Assembly: GCA_963745035.1 (NCBI GenBank) | Contig: CAVUVW010000023.1 | Location: 29,915 to 93,914, forward strand | From: an uncultured delta proteobacterium | Lineage (GTDB): Bacteria > Desulfobacterota > Binatia > UBA9968 | Direction of reading: 5' to 3' | DNA length: 64,000 nucleotides | Shown: positions 3,758 through 59,974 of the stretch, piece after piece | How the letters are laid out: each line of letters opens with the position of its first letter | Position numbering within the stretch: the stretch's first letter is position 1 | Notes under the pieces: model-generated | Told to the model about the DNA's origin: nothing | Databases searched by the model: none | Seen by the model: the letters and a program-made list of their open reading frames with translations, nothing else | Made by a program: the position numbers and the translations under genes

Positions 3758-4573
3758 ATGCCGATCGTATTTGCCTGCGCTGCTAGCCATGCGCCGGGGA
3801 TGACTGCCTGGACCGAAGCTGCGCCTCAAGAACAGCGGGAAAAGATTCTCGGCGGTTACCGCAAGCTCGGCGATAGGCTCGTAGCTTCAAAGCCCGACGC
3901 TCTCGTTGTCGTCAGCGTAGAACACTGGGCCAATTTCTTTTTGAACCAAATGCCGACATTCTGCATCGGCCGCGCCGGCTACTACGACGGGCCGGTGGAA
4001 GAATGGCTGAAGATTGCTAAAACGCGGGTTCCCGGAGATGCAGCGCTGGGCGCGGAGCTTTTAGACGCTTGTCTCGACAGCGGCTTCGATCCGGCGTTTT
4101 CGGACGAATTGCTGTTTGACCATGCGACGATGTTGCCGCTGCATTTTTTAAATCCTGGTATGGCCGTGCCGGTAGTGCCGGTGATTATCAACACCTTGAC
4201 AACACCAATGCCCACGGCCAAGCGCTGTTTTGAATTGGGCCGGACGCTTGGCAAAGCGCTGGAGCGACACCCGAAACGAATCGCACTGATTGCCACCGGA
4301 GGTCTCTCCCACTGGCCTGGCGAAGCGAAGATGGGCAAGATCAATGTGCCTTTTGATACGCAATTTCTCGACAGACTGATCAATGGCGAGCGCGCCCGTC
4401 TTGCCGAATACTCCCATTCAGAGATCGACAGAGAGGCTGGTTCCGGCGGTCACGAAATCAGAACCTGGATAACCGTTGCGGGTGCCGTGGAGAATTGGCA
4501 GGCGACTCTGCTCGCCTATGAGGCGGTTCAGCCCTGGGCGACTGGCTGCGGCTTAGTGGCGTTTAATCGATAG
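3758..4573 (+). CDS. Class III extradiol ring-cleavage dioxygenase (LigB/MhpB-like)
   Basis: SHAP, EHWANFF, DHA, ATGGLSHWP, EIRTW motifs. Confidence 0.88.
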   Translation: MPIVFACAASHAPGMTAWTEAAPQEQREKILGGYRKLGDRLVASKPDALVVVSVEHWANFFLNQMPTFCIGRAGYYDGPVEEWLKIAKTRVPGDAALGAELLDACLDSGFDPAFSDELLFDHATMLPLHFLNPGMAVPVVPVIINTLTTPMPTAKRCFELGRTLGKALERHPKRIALIATGGLSHWPGEAKMGKINVPFDTQFLDRLINGERARLAEYSHSEIDREAGSGGHEIRTWITVAGAVENWQATLLAYEAVQPWATGCGLVAFNR

Positions 4574-4665
4574 GGAACGGGCGGCCACGGCGGCCCCTCA
4601 TTATTTGATCAGAGGAAAAAGACGACACTGTATATGCCCTCAGGGTGAGCCCGCTCACGAACTGG

Positions 4666-7216: not shown

Positions 7217-7378
7217 GTTCAACCGTTTAATAGTTCAACGTCAGAACCGGGTTAATTCGACTTGGATACGCCGATTTTTTCTGTTCGTGCAGAGTTGCAG
7301 AGTTAAGGGTGCGGGTTACCTGGTACGTCCGCATGGGTTCGGTCTTACGTTGAACTGTTGAACCTTGAACGTTTGAAC
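7217..7378. repeat. Inverted GTTCAA/TTGAAC repeat element between convergent genes
   Basis: gttcaaccgtttaatagttcaacgtcagaaccg ... cggtcttacgttgaactgttgaaccttgaacgtttgaac. Confidence 0.6.
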
Positions 7379-51780: not shown

Positions 51781-53408
51781 TTAGCTCCGCTGCTTATCAC
51801 TAAGCAGTGCATGCTCGACGGCCATCCTTCCAAAGGTCATCCCGCCAAGCAACGTCAGACCCGCCTGGTAGCCGGCGCCATACTCCGTGCGTACCCTCAC
51901 GGTGCCGCCCGCGTATAAGCGCGGGATTGCGTGTCCGCGCAAATGCATGACTCGGCCGTGAATGTCCGTATAAAGCCCGGCAGACGATGATTCCGTAGGC
52001 GTCAGTTCCACGCCGTAGAACGGCGCCTTTTCCAACGGTCCCAAGTTGGGGTTGATCGGGTGTTTGGTGTCGCCGACTTTGCGAATCCATAAAGACTGAC
52101 CGCGACCAAATTCCGGATCCAATCCCGCGCGCGCATTTTCATTGAATCTGGCCACCGTTTGCTGCGAGTTGCCCCGCATCAATGTCCAATTGCCGTGCGA
52201 GATCGGCAAGCGACTCAGCTTGCTTGATCCAATCCGGCAGCGGCGTTCCGGGCGGAATATTGGCAAATGGATAGCGCTCTCTAAATTGAGAATCAAACAG
52301 CAGAAAGAACGGAATGTTTGCGTAGCGATGCTTCGTGACTACATCGAATTCTCTGAGCTTTACGACAAACTCTTGAAAGAAGGCCTCATTGCCGAATCGC
52401 CTGCCGTCAGAATTTACCACGATGGAATGAGGATAGGCCAATTCTTGGATGCCGGCGGAGTGAAACTCAGGCTCACCTTCGGGGCGCGGGATCCAGTAGC
52501 CGACCATGGAACTCAAGCTAGTCGGAATATTCCGAATAAACGCTCCGAGTTCTCCGGCCATAAGGAGTCCGTCACCCGTCTGTGTCGGCGGATGGTGCGG
52601 AGCGGAATTGGGAAACGATTGGTAAGCGCGAACGAACTCAGGGTTGCTTTCATATCCACCGGTGCCGAGAAAGACGCCGCGATCACCTTTGGATCTGTTG
52701 CGCGCTGTCTCCCATTCTTACTTCAACACCAGCGATCCGGCCGTCCTGCAGCAGGAGCCTTGTCGCCGGCGATTGCGTCAAAATGGTCACGCCATTTTCT
52801 AAACACTTCAGGAGCAGCCATGCCACCAATCCTTGACCCGCCGCATAGAGAGAGGCCGCATGCTCGAGGTTTTCACGAGCCCAAGAATAACGATTGCCAA
52901 GTCCTCCCCATTTGATTGCCTCAGACCAGGAAACGCCTCCAGGCATGTACGGGCTTTCCAAAAGAGCGGGAGCGCCGTCAGGCAGGGCATTCTTTGGCAG
53001 CGGCACTACTTCGAGTGTGCGACCGAGACCGAGTGAACCCGGCGCGCCCGGAAAGTAATGGTCGGGAAGACCCTCGATCATTCGAAATGGAACACCCAGC
53101 CGGGCAAATGCCTCAATCGTTACGGCCGCCTCTGTTGCGTACAGGCGCATCTTTTCTTCTTCAGCAAATCCGCCCGAAAGGAAGCGCAGGTATTCGAGCC
53201 CCTGTTCATTAGAATCGTGCAGCCCGGCGGCGCGCTGAAGCGCATTGTTGGGCGCCCAAAGTCCGCCGTAAGAATATGCGGTGGCTCCGCCTACAACAGG
53301 TGCTTTCTCCACGACAATCGCCTTTAGACCGCGGTGTGCCGCCCATAAGGCACTTGCCAAACCTGACGCTCCCGAGCCAACAGCTATCCAATCATAATGC
53401 AGATCCAT
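51781..53408 (-). CDS. FAD-dependent oxidoreductase, 3-ketosteroid-dehydrogenase-like (frameshifts)
   Basis: VGSGASG, EK..VGGATAYSYG, VNSDGRRFGNE, DPEFGRG, APFYG, IPRLYAGG. Confidence 0.8.
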
Positions 53409-53438
53409 GAATCGCCCTTTCAGCCGCAACTAACGAAA

Positions 53439-53546: not shown

Positions 53547-53673
53547 CAGAGCTTTTCGGAAAAGCAGCGGTCCATATTGGACGAACCGCAAATGGAAACT
53601 GAATTGACAAGTTGTTGGTCGAAAAGGTAGAGGTTGCGCAACTGTGATTTTGGTAATCATTAATATACTGGTC

Positions 53674-53693
53674 CGTATACTCGCTGGTTAGCC
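53674..53693 (+). promoter_or_regulatory. Possible attI-like site at head of cassette array
   Basis: cgtatac-tcgctg-GTTAGCC, 53 nt before first cassette gene; AT-rich upstream with TTGACA and TATACT. Confidence 0.35.
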
Positions 53694-53745
53694 CGTTTAA
53701 ACGACTACCGTTCCGATGACATCAACTCAATAAAGGAGAATACCG

Positions 53746-54060
53746 ATGAAGTACATGATCAGCTGGTTCGAACGTCCGCAAGGATCGCCTACGGAGTACG
53801 AGAATGCCCAGAAGCGAATACTGGAGGTTTTCACTCAATGGAAGGCGCCCGACAATTTCAAGATCGAGTTGTTCGTGGTGCGGGTAGGCGATTGGGGTGG
53901 GTATATGTTGGTGGACTGCGATGATCCGTTGACCGTTCACAAGTTCTGCTCGACCCTCCCTGCTTTTGTATTCGAAGCACGGCCAGTGGTTCCCGTTATG
54001 GACGCTGTCCGGGTGGAGCTTGAAGCGATTGCCTTTCGTGATGGGCTAAAAGGCGAGTAA
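53746..54060 (+). CDS. DUF3303-like protein (cassette 1)
   Basis: MKYMISW...FEARPVVPV; AAGGAG RBS. Confidence 0.75.
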   Translation: MKYMISWFERPQGSPTEYENAQKRILEVFTQWKAPDNFKIELFVVRVGDWGGYMLVDCDDPLTVHKFCSTLPAFVFEARPVVPVMDAVRVELEAIAFRDGLKGE

Positions 54061-54135
54061 CATTCGAGAGGATCGAATCGCATTTGCCGAGTCTGCGAAA
54101 GATGTATTCACGATGAGTTTGATAAACGCCGTGTG

Positions 54136-54194
54136 GCCTACCCATGCGCTGCAGCGAACGGCTCCGGCTGTCGCTGAGCTTGGGGTCGTTATGT
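54136..54194 (+). repeat. attC site 1 (degenerate R'')
   Basis: GCCTACCcatgcgctgcagcgaacggctccggctgtcgctgagcttggggtcGTTATGT. Confidence 0.7.
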
Positions 54195-54242
54195 TTCTGC
54201 AACAACCTCGCCCACCGCGAGTAACGACCAGTGGAGGGAGCA

Positions 54243-54509
54243 ATGCGCACCGTGATCATCATTGTTGGAGGCTTTGTGCTTTGGGCAGTTTGCCTGGGAA
54301 TAGCAAAGTTCCTTGCGAGGTCCAGCACTACGTCCATGACTACAGCAACGGCGGCATTTGTCGCCATTTGGTTTGTGGCAGCTGCTTCAAACATGTGGAT
54401 TGGCGTCTCGCAGGCTGGCTATTCGTTCCAGGAGGAGTTGCCAATCTTTCTATTGATATTTTTGCTGCCGGTAGGGCTAGCGGTCTTGGCGAAGTGGAAG
54501 TTTCTTTGA
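54243..54509 (+). CDS. Small three-TM membrane protein (cassette 2)
   Basis: 88 aa, hydrophobic, NMWIGVSQAGYSFQEELPIF; GGAG RBS. Confidence 0.75.
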   Translation: MRTVIIIVGGFVLWAVCLGIAKFLARSSTTSMTTATAAFVAIWFVAAASNMWIGVSQAGYSFQEELPIFLLIFLLPVGLAVLAKWKFL

Positions 54510-54577
54510 GCAAGTACGAGATCTGGGGGTATGCCTCGGGTGTTCTCGAGCGAGTGCTCGCGGGGGTGCCAGTGCCG

Positions 54578-55507
54578 TGTCAGACTTGCGTTAAATGCGC
54601 AGAAGTAATAGAAGCACTTTATGCCACGTCATCCACGCGTACACGCCCCGGGACTGCTCTATCACGTCATGGCGCGAGGTAATAATGGTCAAAAGGTATT
54701 CGCGAGCGACCAGGACTACGAGGCTTTTTTAGATCAAATTCTTGTGGTGCGGGGGCGTTATCCGTTTTATCTCTACGCTTACGTTTTGATGCCGAATCAC
54801 TTCCACTTGTTATTGGAGGTTCAAGAAGCGCCAACAGCTCGGATCATGCAATCGCTGCTCACCGGTTATGTTCGGCGCTTTAACCGGATCCATCGACACA
54901 AGGGCCATCTTTTTCAGGGGCGCTACAAGGCCATTGTGTGCGATCGAGATAGCTATCTAATGGAATTGGTGCGCTACATTCATCTTAATCCGCAACGCGC
55001 CAAGATGGTGAGGCAGCCTGGGCAATGGCCGTGGTCGGGACATGGAGAATACTTACAAACGAACCATCGTGGATTGATTGATCCCAGCCCAGTGATGGAT
55101 GAACTGAGGACACCGAAACGCTATGAAGCATTTATCCGCGAGGGAGCTAAACAACCGTACCGAGCGGAATGGCATCCAGGAGAACAGGCCCCGTTTCTTG
55201 GGCCAGGGGAGTTTGAAAAGAAACTCGCGAGGCCAAGAAAGAAGGATTTCCGTCGGCAACCGCTCGCGTTAGAAGTATTAATGCGGCGGGTGGCAAAACA
55301 AAGTGGAATAGATCCGCAAGCGGTACGGGGAGGAGGGCGTACGAGGTTATTAGGAGAAGTGCGACGGCGGTTTATTGAAGCGGCTGTCCTGGAACAGGGA
55401 TACCGACCGGTGGAGGTAGCCGTTTTCCTGGGCTGTCATGCCTCCAATGTGAGCCGCGCATTGCAACGAACAGCCAACGCGATTAAGCAAATAACGCAAG
55501 TCTGACA
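54578..55507 (+). mobile_element. HUH Y1-transposase element bounded by perfect 16-bp inverted repeats
   Basis: TGTCAGACTTGCGTTA (54578-54593) / TAACGCAAGTCTGACA (55492-55507); outer GGGG/CCCC motifs. Confidence 0.8.
54621..55505 (+). CDS. RAYT/IS200-like Y1 HUH transposase with C-terminal HTH
   Basis: YHVMARGN, YVLMPNHFHLL (HUH), GHLFQGRYKA, YIHLNP, WPWSG; C-terminal VAVFLGCHASNVSRA. Confidence 0.9.
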   Translation: MPRHPRVHAPGLLYHVMARGNNGQKVFASDQDYEAFLDQILVVRGRYPFYLYAYVLMPNHFHLLLEVQEAPTARIMQSLLTGYVRRFNRIHRHKGHLFQGRYKAIVCDRDSYLMELVRYIHLNPQRAKMVRQPGQWPWSGHGEYLQTNHRGLIDPSPVMDELRTPKRYEAFIREGAKQPYRAEWHPGEQAPFLGPGEFEKKLARPRKKDFRRQPLALEVLMRRVAKQSGIDPQAVRGGGRTRLLGEVRRRFIEAAVLEQGYRPVEVAVFLGCHASNVSRALQRTANAIKQITQV

Positions 55508-55600
55508 TGGGGCCCCTGGGTTTCGTGTTCGTCGCCAAGTGGGGATGTGGATTCAACCGGCAGATCGCCCAATTTGCTAAAAGATATGGGAGAAAACCTA

Positions 55601-55945
55601 ATGCAGATCTATTATCTTGAAATCGTGACCAAGGACGTCGATACGGTGTGTGCCGTGTACGCCGCCGCGAACGGACTGGAGTTCGGCGACGCTGACGCCG
55701 CACTTGGCAACGCACGTACAGCGGCTCTGTCGGGAGGAGGCTTGGTCGGGGTGCGTGCGCCCCTGCGCGAGTCAGAGGAGCCGGTGGTTCGTCCCTATTG
55801 GCTCGTGGACGATATCGAATCTGCAATTGCTGCAGCGGCAGATACCGGCGCCAAGGTCGCCCTTCCGCCGATGAAGATTGCTCGCCACGGCACATGCGCC
55901 ATCTACATCGAAGGAGGAGTCGAACACGGCCTGTGGCAGAGGTAG
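55601..55945 (+). CDS. VOC/glyoxalase-like protein (cassette)
   Basis: YLEIVT, RPYWLVDDIE, PPMKI..HG..AIY, HGLWQ. Confidence 0.8.
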   Translation: MQIYYLEIVTKDVDTVCAVYAAANGLEFGDADAALGNARTAALSGGGLVGVRAPLRESEEPVVRPYWLVDDIESAIAAAADTGAKVALPPMKIARHGTCAIYIEGGVEHGLWQR

Positions 55946-55970
55946 CCGTACGATGTGGGCAGTCGCATTC

Positions 55971-56096
55971 GCCTAACAAGGCGCTGCAGCGAACCGCCGC
56001 CCCGCTTTGCAGTCGGGCGGTTCGGGAGAACTTGTTCGCGACTGTTACAGCCGGCAGAGCGTTTCCGGCGGCGGTCGCTGAGCTTGGTCGTTATGC
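55971..56096 (+). repeat. attC site 2
   Basis: GCCTAACaaggcgctgcagcgaaccgccgc...gcggcggtcgctgagcttggtcGTTATGC. Confidence 0.88.
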
Positions 56097-56120
56097 GGCT
56101 TGGTTGCAATGCCGAGACAT

Positions 56121-56818
56121 ATGACTGAACTTGTTGGCGTTGATGGATGTGCAGAAGGCTGGATTTTCTTGGTTGAGAGTGGTGGCCAACTTGAGGTCGG
56201 CGTCCTGCCGAATTTGCAATCGCTGCTAAAGGACATGACCAACAGCGCTATAGTTGCTATTGATGTCCCGATTGGACTGACGGAATGTGGACCGAGAGAG
56301 TGCGACATTGAGGCGCGGCGTCTGCTCGGCTCACCTCGTGCGAGCAGCGTCTTTCCAGCACCGGTCCGCGCGTGCTTGGACGCCGCATCGTATGCGGAAG
56401 CGTGCGAGGCTCACCACCGTGCAGACGGGCGGCGCATGTCTCAACAAGCTTTCGGGATTTTGAAAAAAATTCGTGAAGTGAACGAAGTGATGTTGCGGAA
56501 TCCAAAACTTCAGGCTCGCATCCGAGAAGTACATCCAGAAGTGTGCTTCGCGCGTGGAACAGTGGAAAGCCGATGTCGCACCGCAAGAGTCGCCGGACCG
56601 GAAGTCTGGAACGAGAAGCGCTCATCGATTCGGTCTGGCCAGGCGAACGGGATCGACTCCGTAGTCTAATCCGCGGCCAACGGTACAAGGCGGACGATCT
56701 TAACGACGCGTTCGCAGCGCTTTGGACTGCGCGTCGGATTCTGAAGCTTAAAGCCGCCGTCCTACCGGTGTCGCCCCGTGAAGACGCTGTTGGTCTTCGA
56801 ATGGAAATCGTAGTGTGA
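56121..56818 (+). CDS. DUF429 family predicted RNase-H-fold nuclease (frameshift ~56550; cassette)
   Basis: VGVDG..GW, AIDVPIGL, RECD..AR, SSVFPAP, EVHPE, DDLNDA. Confidence 0.8.
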
Positions 56819-56827
56819 GCGCCAACC

Positions 56828-56911
56828 GCATAACGAGCGGCTTGAGACGGATCTTCGGACCCGCTTGCCTTTGCCTCGCTGGCCTTGTCCGCTCAGCCTA
56901 AAACGTTATCC
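56828..56911 (+). repeat. attC site 3
   Basis: GCATAACgagcggcttgagacgga...tccgctcagcctaaaacGTTATCC; GCATAAC complements upstream GTTATGC. Confidence 0.85.
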
Positions 56912-56947
56912 CCCCTGAGCAGTCAGTTTGCCGAAAGGAGTTTTCCG

Positions 56948-57373
56948 ATGACCATCGCGTCTGATCTCTTGGAGAGACACATTCAAACTCTTGTTGCCGA
57001 TCCCACGCAATGGCAAACGCTGATCGCCGACGACATGGTTTGGGAATTGGCCTATGCGCCCGCCATCGGCCATCCCGCGCGGCTGTCTGGCCGGGACGAG
57101 ATCATTCGGCATGTAACGTGGTTCCTGAGTGCCGTGGAGAACTTTCGTTTCATCGAACCCAGGATCTCAGCCTTCGCCGATCCCTTAGCTGCGGTCGTTC
57201 AAGTGAAAGCGGAAGCGTTGATCAAACCTACTGGCCGGGTTTATCGTCAAGAGTACGTGATGTTTCTGATCGCCAAGGACGGAAAGATCGCTCACATACG
57301 TGAGTATTTCGACCCAACGCGAGCGGCCAAGTCGATGAACGAGTCGATCCTCGATCTTGAACCGTGGTTATGA
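56948..57373 (+). CDS. SnoaL/NTF2-like protein (cassette)
   Basis: LIADDMVWE, GRDEI, TGRVYRQEY, DGKIAHIREYFDP. Confidence 0.85.
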   Translation: MTIASDLLERHIQTLVADPTQWQTLIADDMVWELAYAPAIGHPARLSGRDEIIRHVTWFLSAVENFRFIEPRISAFADPLAAVVQVKAEALIKPTGRVYRQEYVMFLIAKDGKIAHIREYFDPTRAAKSMNESILDLEPWL

Positions 57374-57390
57374 TCGCCGTTCTTGCAGGC

Positions 57391-57495
57391 AGATAACCAC
57401 CCACTGCAGTTGACGAGCCGCATGCGATGAGGGTTTCGTCGAGCTATGTGTGTTCCTGTTCTGCACACGGCTCGCAACTGAGCGGCAGGTTAGTT
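57391..57495 (+). repeat. attC site 4
   Basis: AGATAACcacccactgcagttgacgagccg...cggctcgcaactgagcggcagGTTAGTT. Confidence 0.87.
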
Positions 57496-57512
57496 TTCCA
57501 TTGGATATCTCT

Positions 57513-58220
57513 ATGCCGCACCAAAGCTCTCAACTCAGCCCACTTCAGTACCGCATCCACATGGAGTTTGACACGGCGGCAGATTACATCTGGAAGGCAC
57601 CGGGACTTATCCAGCACGAAACTGTATTGGAGGCCAAGAAGCTTCGCGAATACTTTCCAAGTGGCGGCGAGATTGCAGACTTTCGATGGCGCCGCGAGTC
57701 CGAAAAACTTGAAAGCTGTTTTCCCTACCTGATTGCAGTTGGCAACCTTTTTTCAGCGACGTCATTGTTTGAAACGTACCTTATGCTGATCGCTCGCATC
57801 CTCGACGCACATTTCAGTTCACTTAGTTTGTGCAGACGTCAAGGCGTTTCCCGAATTCGGGAGTTCTTTTCCAGGATCGGATTGCGCGAATCAAACCTCA
57901 CTACCTATCAGGTCACGAAGAACGCAATTACAATCAGGAACTGCTTGTTCCATTGCAGTGGAGTGCTTTCCTGGTCAAGGGATAGCGAGTCCCTTCGCAT
58001 TTTGGTACGGGATGGAAAGTATTTATCCGTTGACGACCGGGCTCGTCGTCTAGAACTGGGAGGCGTGTTCGACGAAGTCCAGATCGTTGATTCGTTCCTT
58101 GGGGAGCGGATTCAGGTTGACAATTCATATTCTCATCTCGTTTGCGCTTACTTTCGAGATCATCTACTACAGCTTGCTGATGCCGCGGAGGCACTAATGC
58201 CCGCGGGTATGAAAAGCTAA
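57513..58220 (+). CDS. Hypothetical protein with HEPN-like RX4H motif (cassette)
   Basis: SLFETYL helix plus IRNCLFH; stop TAA lies inside the attC R'' AGCTAAC. Confidence 0.6.
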   Translation: MPHQSSQLSPLQYRIHMEFDTAADYIWKAPGLIQHETVLEAKKLREYFPSGGEIADFRWRRESEKLESCFPYLIAVGNLFSATSLFETYLMLIARILDAHFSSLSLCRRQGVSRIREFFSRIGLRESNLTTYQVTKNAITIRNCLFHCSGVLSWSRDSESLRILVRDGKYLSVDDRARRLELGGVFDEVQIVDSFLGERIQVDNSYSHLVCAYFRDHLLQLADAAEALMPAGMKS

Positions 58221-58300
58221 CCCGCGGCTTAAAACTGATGTCGAAAACGCTCTCCTTTCAGGTTCGCGTCTTCGCCACGGTTTAGCCGCAAACGTTAGGC
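58215..58300 (+). repeat. attC site 5
   Basis: AGCTAACccgcggcttaaaactg...cggtttagccgcaaacGTTAGGC. Confidence 0.85.
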
Positions 58301-58317
58301 ATCAGGAAGGGAAGTCG

Positions 58318-58695
58318 ATGCACAGAAGCAGACTGGGAAACATCGTCATTGATTGCCAAACGGAAGATCTTCTGTCAGAGGCTCAGTTTTGGAGTGCCGC
58401 ACTGGGTTACTCATTACCCCAAGATTTGGATGTAATCAGCAGCTTTATCCAGCTCGTAACTCCACCCGGCGACGTGCAGGTCATCATTCAGCGAGTTCGT
58501 CATGAAGCGCGGGCACATCTTGATATTGAGACAGACTCAATAGATTTGGAGGTTGCGCGCTTGGAGCGCTTGGGGGCAACAGTCGTGTCCCGCAATGATG
58601 GATGGGTGATAATGCAAGCTCCGACTGGGCATCGGTTCTGCGTTGGTAGTCCCTATCGTGGCGGCTTCGATCAGGGAGCCAACACATGGGAGTGA
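58318..58695 (+). CDS. VOC/glyoxalase-like protein (cassette)
   Basis: IVIDC, FWSAALG, RAHLDIE, LERLGA, APTGHRFC. Confidence 0.85.
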   Translation: MHRSRLGNIVIDCQTEDLLSEAQFWSAALGYSLPQDLDVISSFIQLVTPPGDVQVIIQRVRHEARAHLDIETDSIDLEVARLERLGATVVSRNDGWVIMQAPTGHRFCVGSPYRGGFDQGANTWE

Positions 58696-58696
58696 T

Positions 58697-58765
58697 GCCT
58701 AACAATGCATTCAAGTCATTCAAGCCGAAGCCGCTTCGCGGCGCGGCTTAATTCAAGCGTTAGCC
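58697..58765 (+). repeat. attC site 6, aadA-type short attC with a 9-bp internal duplication
   Basis: GCCTAACaatgcattcaagtcattcaagccgaagccgcttcgcggcgcggcttaattcaagcGTTAGCC. Confidence 0.9.
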
Positions 58766-58997: not shown

Positions 58998-59974
58998 TTA
59001 CTTGAGGCCGTACTGCGCCACCATGCGATCGATGAAACCGGTGGTTTCCAGTTCTTTGAGGATCGAGTGATCCACGAACTGCGCTGGGTTTGCCTTCAAG
59101 GCTTTAGGCTCACTCTTGCTCACCTCCTGAATGGGAATCTCCAACTCCGCATCCGTGGCATAGGGGCGAAGGCTATGATCGTAAGCGCGAAAGTTTTCCT
59201 CCAACACCTCTCGATCCTGTATCCGCATGTATTTGCTCATCACCCTGAAGCTTTGCTCCTTGTGAGTCTTGTAATAGCAGATGCCTTCGATCAAGCCTTC
59301 ATGAAATTAATCACCACCGGCCGATTGGCTTGAATGAAAGCTCTTCTAGTCACCACGACCGCGCTCGTATACGGAATTTTTAGACGAGAGGCGTCGATCA
59401 AAAGGGGGAATCCTTTCTTTCTCGCCATCAGGGTAATCGGTGGCGTGACAATCGCGGCATCGGCGCGCCCCGCTTCGACCGCAAGCAGCCGGCTGGTTTG
59501 ATTTCCAAACTGGAGTAAGGCTACCTCGCTCTCCGGCTTTAAGCCCTCCCTCTGGAGCAAGAAACGTCCCATGAAATCCGACGAACTGCCGTATCGGCCG
59601 ATTGCGAGGCTCTTGATCTGTTTGACGTCCGCGACTCCTTTTTTGCCAAAAATATTATTATCCATGAACTGATTGAAGCTCATGGTTATGGCGAAATCCA
59701 TTCCCTTTATATTGTTGGCGATGGCCAGCATCGGAGAAAACTGTGCCATCTGCACATCATTATTGAGCAGAGCGGAAATCGAGACGGTGGCACCCTGGAT
59801 GAACACTAAGCGAACCGTGTTGCCGTATTTTTCAAAGAAGCCGAGATCCGCGGCTATCCATAAAGGCGCGGTATTTCCAGAATCGCTCGCGGTACTGAAG
59901 TTGATAATGTCTGCGCCGGCCGGGTTGGTTGCAGCGAAAAAGAGGAAAACCGCAATAAGAGCGAGTTTTTCCAT
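58998..59974 (-). CDS. NitT/TauT substrate-binding protein (frameshift ~59292)
   Basis: PLWIAADLGFFEKYG, GRYGSSSDF, IEGICYYK, FVDHSILKELE. Confidence 0.82.

Follow-up and report, generated by a model that had tools for sequence, protein, structure and literature searches.

Why a gene for a Y1 transposase of the HUH type, enclosed by inverted repeats, stands among the attC sites of an integron cassette array is the question raised by positions 54577-55507 of the DNA analysed here, a 64-kb window (the whole stretch, 64,000 nt) of an uncultured delta proteobacterium. A reading made from the sequence alone had proposed that this gene belongs to an element that targets or removes attC sites and thereby fuses neighbouring cassettes. 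We consider it probable that the feature is instead a TIRtron, that is, a RAYT-like gene (the TIRYT) flanked by terminal inverted repeats, which landed here as it would in any dispensable non-coding spacer of an integrase-less array, with no action specific to attC. As an element type the unit is an ordinary new member of a described but barely studied group; its identity is of a kind already known, and the targeting or erasing of attC gets little support. The unit measures about 0.93 kb, spanning 54577-55507 plus a few outer bases, and is composed of the TIRYT gene and two terminal inverted repeats, arranged as follows:

54546-54576, no strand assigned: outer left segment, with a small GC hairpin, a GGGGG run and a GTGCC(A)GTGCC repeat; in a contig of a second sample (X5) it accompanies the element.
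54577-54598, + strand: left terminal inverted repeat GTGTCAGACTTGCGTTAAATGC, with two inner TGCG boxes 9 nt apart, read by eye.
54621-55505, + strand: TIRYT gene, 294 aa, with an N-terminal Y1/HUH core and a C-terminal helical domain resembling a helix-turn-helix (HTH) at about residues 217-284.
55487-55507, - strand: right terminal inverted repeat, containing the stop codon at 55503-55505.
55508-55519, no strand assigned: outer right segment TGGGGCCCCTGG, outside the leader of the VOC cassette.

The protein encoded at 54621-55505 matches Pfam Y1_Tnp (E 5.9e-11) and NCBIfam REP_Tyr_transpos (82 bits, for a cut-off of 80), and its AlphaFold model (mean pLDDT 79) is structurally most similar to 4ER8 (E 2e-8), a complex of TnpA_REP with a REP hairpin, which was also the sole match in a sequence-level search of the PDB. 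The motif H60-F-H62 and residue Y119 are invariant across 26 aligned homologues, and Y119 is probably the catalytic tyrosine. The C-terminal domain, residues 217-284, is helical in the model with pLDDT values of 72-85; in the window protein HTH_23 aligns with residues 257-283 at an E-value of 0.13, below threshold, and among the 26 homologues five have C-terminal matches to HTH_23 (best 1.7e-4) and five to Bac_DnaA_C (best 7e-3). A C-terminal HTH in the window protein is thus weakly supported.

The two arms of the inverted repeat, at 54575-54598 and 55487-55510, are 24 nt long and complementary at 21 of 24 positions (88%), with a perfect 16-nt core, TGTCAGACTTGCGTTA, at 54578-54593 and 55492-55507, and the left repeat is separated from the TIRYT start codon by 42 nt. 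When up to two mismatches were allowed, the core 15-mer GTCAGACTTGCGTTA was found in the window at the two repeat sites only (0.09 expected), a number of sites reached by 0 of 100 shuffles. In the 7.4-Mb genome the same search gave 3 forward and 4 reverse sites against 4 and 4 for the reversed-pattern control, exact matches were restricted to the two ends of the element, and no dispersed family of cognate palindromic repeats rose above that control. Single-strand hairpins at the element ends were likewise absent, as the fold z-scores relative to shuffled sequence (-0.9, -1.0, +1.75 and +0.58) were in no case significant; in folding no better than shuffled sequence, these ends are unlike REPs, IS200 ends or attC. 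On reading the window sequence round the element no direct duplication of flanking bases was seen. The sequence-only reading had described the architecture well, in that the perfect 16-bp inverted repeats round the HUH gene, the stop codon (TGA, 55503-55505) inside the right repeat and the missing target duplication are all borne out. Its Y1 HUH gene with an extra C-terminal HTH stands as regards the core, recognized by Pfam, NCBIfam and fold, and the presence of an additional C-terminal region, the assignment of that region to HTH being the doubtful part.

This combination corresponds to the TIRtrons described by Di Nocera, De Gregorio & Rocco 2013 (BMC Genomics 14:522, PMC3733652; papers are cited here and below from excerpts), in which RAYT-like genes are flanked by terminal inverted repeats sharing GGGGWSAS. 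The window unit and TIRtrons have in common a RAYT-like Y1 HUH gene and long terminal inverted repeats placed close to it at a constant spacing; TIRtrons are usually single-copy and often lack a dispersed repeat family. The window repeats are terminal inverted repeats and not REP hairpins (21/24 arms, no significant self-folding), and the core is of RAYT type by Pfam, NCBIfam, the 4ER8 fold and the invariant H60-F-H62/Y119. The setting of the window unit in an attC array has no counterpart in the excerpts of PMC3733652, a paper in which the word 'integron' occurs 0 times. The protein also resembles TnpA_REP subclass 2.1 of Quentin, Siguier, Chandler & Fichant 2018 (BMC Genomics 19:475, PMC6006769), whose members bear C-terminal tails like Bac_DnaA_C, HTH_23 and HTH_28 with no REP nearby, and in which 20 of 26 TIRYTs were placed (PMC6006769). 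Likewise, it is long, has an HTH-like C-terminal extension and no REP in its vicinity, although its own HTH match is sub-threshold (E 0.13), so that the assignment is one by domains and not by phylogeny. With the REPtron, a RAYT/TnpA_REP gene with REP or REPIN sequences (structure 4ER8), the unit shares catalytic core fold and motifs, inverted copies of cognate DNA and a mostly single-copy occurrence, but its flanking DNA is neither a self-folding palindrome nor dispersed in the host genome, where 15-mer counts do not exceed the control, and the TIRYT is longer by a C-terminal domain. IS200/IS605 elements resemble the unit in their Y1 HUH transposase and in making no target-site duplication; those elements, however, have subterminal hairpins, no terminal inverted repeats and often tnpB, in contrast to the inverted repeats of the window unit, which has no significant hairpins and no tnpB.

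The protein family to which the TIRYT belongs is very large, 6908 of 8000 scored candidates matching at E<=1e-3. In a comparison of 80 genome loci and 80 metagenome loci, most relatives, from many phyla, were flanked by inverted copies of a sequence beginning GGGGTCAGRC, with 42-60 nt separating the left repeat from the start codon across phyla. Exact inverted repeats of 12 nt or more enclose the gene at 69 of the 102 loci with both flanks, as opposed to 2 of 102 in a control reversed but not complemented, and GTCWR is present within the repeat in 54 of these 69. More distant relatives show GGGGTCAGRC directly at the repeat terminus, and two other, more distant paralogue loci in the genome of the window carry GGGTCA-type repeats, the window element itself being single-copy there. 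Flanking inverted repeats are a family-wide trait and not special to the site in the window.

The boundaries of the unit can be followed in other samples, since contigs of four public runs were compared with window 53600-56300. A contig from X2, 89% identical, matches exactly 54577-55507 and has both flanks unlike those of the window, and a second X2 contig is identical over 55520-55941, which comprises the VOC gene and its 81-nt leader, with other sequence upstream. The X1 contig, identical over 55090-55516, reads ...GTCTGACATGGGGCCCC at the right terminus, of which 19 nt are duplicated in tandem before another flank begins, while the X5 contig shares 54546-54653 across the left repeat, with a 5-nt deletion at 54572 and different sequence upstream; the loose-end flanks of X1 and X2 were not found in the genome of the window. 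The sister genome G017 has a remnant (90% identical) that lacks the 5' part and stops at 55507, next to other flanking sequence, and copies of the L118 and L120 types, both 87% identical to the window's, occur in two unrelated flanks. TIRtrons of other clades in a further sister genome, G015, include three copies 96.3-98.6% identical over 1015-1030 bp and a pair 98.2% identical over 997 bp, the latter ending at GGGGTCAG repeats. This shows a discrete unit that has changed its context, whether by itself or by other means. Because of the exact boundaries, the unrelated flanks and the near-identical sister copies, we regard it as a mobile or recently mobile element rather than a fixed host gene. 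As to their arrangement in G015, the three copies lie within 6 kb, together with a partial fourth (L236, G015:C8:233500-244500), and the pair 7 kb apart (L237, G015:C9:286000-297500), beside an internally repetitive stretch (L237 116-1845, about 77% self-similar).

These observations bear directly on the notion of a domesticated gene, an immobile, single-copy nuclease or regulator of the host, as many RAYTs are, for which the repeats would be operator sites and the place in the array an accident. Such a gene would be expected to occur once, with no solo repeats above control, as in the genome of the window, and at a fixed distance from its operator, as the 42-60 nt between left repeat and start codon across phyla might suggest; furthermore, TIRYT genes are reported from many genomes in which no family of TIR repeats is present (PMC3733652). 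The same notion does not accommodate a unit of exact boundaries in unrelated flanks, nor the 96-99% identical copies repeated in the sister genome, and presence in the genus is patchy (16 of 24 genomes with a match at E<=1e-40), with a frameshifted copy at locus L017 and the truncated one of G017 resembling decaying mobile DNA. We hold it to be very improbable.

For a mobile TIRtron, we hypothesize that the HUH/tyrosine core would cleave and rejoin DNA at the repeat termini, of GGGGWSAS type and here GTGTCAGAC, and that the HTH domain would dock inside each repeat on a pair of short direct boxes spaced by 7-9 nt. Among 82 left repeats of relatives, 36 contain a direct repeat of at least 5 nt, compared with 36 among 154 control windows; in 30 of these 36 left repeats the two boxes stand 7-9 nt apart. 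The inner boxes are candidate binding sites of the C-terminal HTH domain, the DNA target of which was left open by Quentin et al. 2018 (PMC6006769). In the window the box pair (5-8 nt) lies at 54586-54600, and the sequence of the boxes is lineage-specific, examples being TTGCGTT, CTTGAAT, CACTAACT, TTGAAGAT and TTTATTG. Since the left repeat is placed 42 nt upstream of the start codon, the TIRYT protein may also regulate its own gene; a promoter scan of 54450-55650 revealed no sigma-70-like site, and consequently autoregulation via the left repeat is suggested by geometry only.

Whether the element acts on attC depends on where such sites can be recognized. Two hand-written attC finders, one based on arm alignment and the other on an R-box plus L-box helix, were dropped, their counts in the real and the reversed genome being close (e.g. 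39 vs 23), and a covariance model was adopted because they hardly exceeded the reversed-genome counts. As RNAalifold gave no consensus structure from a MAFFT alignment of 12 attC sites, the structure of the model was set by hand from the individual folds of these 12 sites of the lineage (5 of them from the window), which consist of an R-box stem, a bulged spacer, an L-box stem with an extra-helical base and a variable tip. The resulting model, R1, was built from the 12 sites, and R2 was retrained on 17. R1 recovers five window attC sites at E<1e-4 and nothing else in the 64 kb; in total, six sites are readable at gene junctions between 54136 and 58765. The features around the element are these:

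54136-54194, + strand: degenerate attC after the DUF3303 cassette, with R'' box GCCTACC and a shortened centre (R1 with filters off: 8 bits, E 0.7).
54231-54509, + strand: upstream open reading frame (ORF) in the same attC-bounded unit as the element, 92 aa and hydrophobic, called the membrane ORF below; no Pfam/NCBIfam match.
55601-55945, + strand: VOC-like ORF of 114 aa, the downstream gene of the same attC-bounded unit; no Pfam/NCBIfam match.
55971-56096, + strand: attC closing the element-bearing unit (R1 33.7 bits), folding into R-box stem, bulged spacer and L-box stem.
56100-56818: split DUF429 gene, just before the rest of the array (56828-58765).
56828-58765, + strand: rest of the array, with attC at 56828-56911, 57391-57495, 58215-58300 and 58697-58765 between SnoaL, unnamed 256-aa and Glyoxalase_6 cassettes.

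Between 54195 and 55970 nothing credible was detected by R1 even with filters off, which agrees with the claim of the sequence-only reading that the HUH gene occupies a stretch of the array without attC. That reading had further counted this as the only junction lacking the site; the absence itself holds, but both junctions of the HUH gene are without attC, two and not one. No integron integrase is encoded in the 64-kb window, and the sole match in the genome above the integron-integrase cut-off is on contig C6, so that we regard the array as a CALIN-type cluster. An integron gene cassette consists of an ORF with its own attC, and the TIRYT gene shares its attC-bounded unit with two other ORFs. 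Rfam families gave no match in the window.

The missing inner attC can be viewed in the light of the genes on either side. The membrane ORF (54231-54509) has homologues of 43-66% identity behind attC R' boxes in 7 relatives. At five informative loci these homologues are followed either by a second ORF without attC and with no TIRtron present (L201, L203 and L204, 3 of 5) or by an attC of their own (L200 and L205, 2 of 5). Since cassettes of two ORFs without an inner attC occur in the absence of any TIRtron, an attC-less junction needs no eraser, and the junction in the window may either never have had an attC, as a two-ORF cassette, or have lost it by ordinary decay. The nearest Atlas clusters of the VOC-like ORF are named 'VOC family protein' (score 0.98); no homologue of this protein was found in 60 relatives, and a DNA search of the same number of relatives gave no copy of the membrane-ORF/VOC junction.

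The surroundings of relatives of the element were then scanned with the attC models, a hit being defined by E<0.1:

87 loci, 487,904 bases, R1 and R2: hit in L017 only.
80 loci, 312,609 bases, R1 and R2: hits in L125 and L140 only.
28 further loci from relatives, 95,555 bases: L227 (E 0.004), and a weak L216 (E 0.2).

Among the further loci L208 equals L113 and L209 equals L114, which leaves 193 other loci in total. The 28 include two from an unpublished genome, G005; G005 and G035 are within the tallies of relatives, and no claim is made on them alone. Since both strands went into the training of R2, and L125 and L140 score ambiguously, attC strand polarity was not used. In all, attC is present in the scanned flanks of 4 of the 193 other loci (L017, L125, L140 and L227), the reach of models trained on one lineage being limited beyond it. 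An element specific for attC would have copies in or abutting attC in most occurrences, and enrichment of homologues in or next to attC was the check that the sequence-only reading had itself suggested; the outcome is these 4 of 193. When the sub-clade of the window is delimited by at least 54% identity and GTCAGACTTGC-type repeats, it comprises 41 loci including the window, equivalent to 30 distinct flank contexts, and 26 of these 30 are without a hit; outside the sub-clade, attC occurs at 1 of 154 loci (L227).

If the TIRYT recognized folded attC strands, inserted at or into them and destroyed them, fusing the neighbouring cassettes, then the absence of attC on both sides of the element in the window and the position of four of the 30 contexts of the sub-clade in attC arrays (window, L017, L125 and L140) would be readily understood. 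In addition, the TIRYT gene is codirectional with neighbouring cassette ORFs in the window, L017 and L140 and with a cassette ORF fragment in L125, and Y1 HUH enzymes are known to work on single-stranded DNA (PMC5027513). The geometry of the array-borne copies gives no hint that attC is cut. In the window and in L125 the repeats have no piece of attC adjoining them; L125 and L140 each possess an intact attC, 400-500 nt past the right repeat and with another ORF in between; the flank of the G017 remnant gives no hit with either attC model; and the 30 nt read from each flank of the 89%-identical X2 copy contain no attC R' box. These observations, together with element ends that are not hairpins, two-ORF cassettes that exist without any TIRtron, repeats that are a property of the whole family and the rarity of attC among the relatives, speak against the proposal that the element targets or removes attC, and we consider such an activity unlikely.

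Known elements that target attC are IS1111-attC and the group IIC-attC introns. With these the window unit has in common its location within integron cassette arrays, but they encode a DEDD transposase or consist of a ribozyme with a reverse transcriptase and occupy a defined position inside attC, whereas no attC abuts the window unit. Integron-associated group IIC introns are mentioned in PMC7923331, which also contains a case of an IS200/605 element adjoining a CALIN; in the excerpts of PMC8266576 attC appears only as an analogy. Literature searches, which did not extend to most subscription journals, gave no account of a TIRtron lying within such an array.

The recurrence of the sub-clade in arrays would follow with no recognition of attC if a TIRtron of this sub-clade had once entered a cassette and was then carried among arrays, within composite cassettes, by integrase recombination. 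In agreement with such a passenger, the four array-borne copies all reside within attC-bounded units, L017 and contig C26 of the genome of the window share an attC sequence type, and this genome possesses an integron integrase and scattered attC sites. Nevertheless, the array-borne copies share just 62-71% identity with that of the window, the ORFs next to the four are all different (VOC, hydrolase fragment, coiled/membrane ORF, none) with no shared composite cassette visible, and in other samples the similarity breaks off where the repeats end and not at attC boundaries. We find this history as doubtful as the destruction of attC by the element.

Several points weigh against an ordinary TIRtron that landed in a spacer. 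The 4 array contexts among 30 look to be above the share of these genomes taken up by arrays; nhmmer with a sequence-only attC profile returned 13 rows in the whole genome, mostly training sites, and since this profile is too insensitive to measure the genome share in arrays, the 4/30 figure stands without a proper background; the four contexts may, moreover, be non-independent. In L017, where the TIRYT gene is frameshifted, a weak, degenerate attC (6.4 bits) is located 48 nt upstream of the left repeat. R1 and R2, trained on 12 and then 17 sites of the window's own lineage, may miss attC of distant phyla. No contig was found with the empty allele, in which the membrane ORF would be joined to the VOC ORF without the element; the second X2 contig has no GTTRRRY box in 30 of its 77 upstream bases, too little to call it an empty allele, and the run contigs do not bridge 54484-54545 or 55517-55519, where missing cover is evidence neither way. 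The repeats of the window begin with GTGTCAGAC, read as CGTGTCAG, which agrees with GGGGWSAS at 6 of 8 positions, and the GGGG runs, at 54562-54566 and 55509-55512 (reverse complement CCCC 55513-55516), are displaced outward of the repeat by 10-13 nt on the left and 2 nt on the right. Finally, repeat cleavage, binding of the HTH domain to the boxes and autoregulation are steps that we infer, and the excerpts of the literature consulted contain no biochemical test of a TIRYT.

Other features were observed beside the element and the array. Immediately outside the terminal repeats, short direct repeats are found that differ by lineage, such as GGGCAATAG twice, ACTCACGCCCAC three times and GGGGTCCGT three times; examples come from loci L014-L197 (L120 1076-1096, L132 3749-3790, L123 840-868) and from the window (54562-54576 and 55520-55534). 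An exact direct repeat of at least 8 nt is present in 51 of 159 windows of 60 nt abutting the repeat, compared with 4 of 143 windows located 200 nt farther out, and no description of such outer repeats was found in the excerpts of the TIRtron literature. Their copy number varies among samples, X5 having one GTGCC unit less (54572-54576) and X1 the 19-nt tandem duplication (55500-55516), and therefore it seems that the termini are reiterated or trimmed within short times. In L017 about 60 nt beyond the right repeat (3900-3960) duplicate part of a minus-strand ORF 650 nt farther on (4558-4620), which hints at a rearrangement beside the frameshifted copy.

The DUF3303 cassette upstream of the element is duplicated in the genome, window 53700-54159 being 96% identical to G000:C26:81649-82109 up to the middle of the attC; on C26 this attC is complete (93 nt) and its type is that of the window site, which is shortened to 59 nt and has a mutated R'' box. 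Split genes occur near the array (DUF429 at 56100-56669 and 56543-56818, FAD_binding_2 at 51781-53429, an NMT1-like binding protein at 58998-59974), and may reflect either real decay or indel errors of the assembly. A separate palindromic family of GTTCAAC / GTTGAAC units, which surfaced as false positives of a hand-written attC finder, is present at window 7217-7363 and at C14:275225, C17:146758, C24:47826 and 51100, and C25:116451; it looks like a dispersed REP-like family.

The window TIRtron is a clean example of its type, with boundaries confirmed in other samples, and as such of modest value. The recurrence of its sub-clade in arrays is the sole lead worth a proper survey. It is a slim prospect that the sub-clade with GTGTCAGACTTGC-type repeats preferentially settles in cassette arrays, by way of attC-like single-stranded DNA or a single-stranded phase of recombination, and leaves fused multi-ORF cassettes behind. 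Were targeting of attC arrays by the sub-clade true, single-strand enzymes of the HUH type would be tied to the dynamics of integrons, the origin of multi-gene cassettes would be accounted for, and an array-preferring sub-clade would constitute a third, HUH-based class of integron-associated mobile element. For the family as a whole, the evidence from the sister genomes shows TIRtrons as discrete, recently copied units of 1 kb, and bears on the question of whether TIRYTs are mobile or domesticated.

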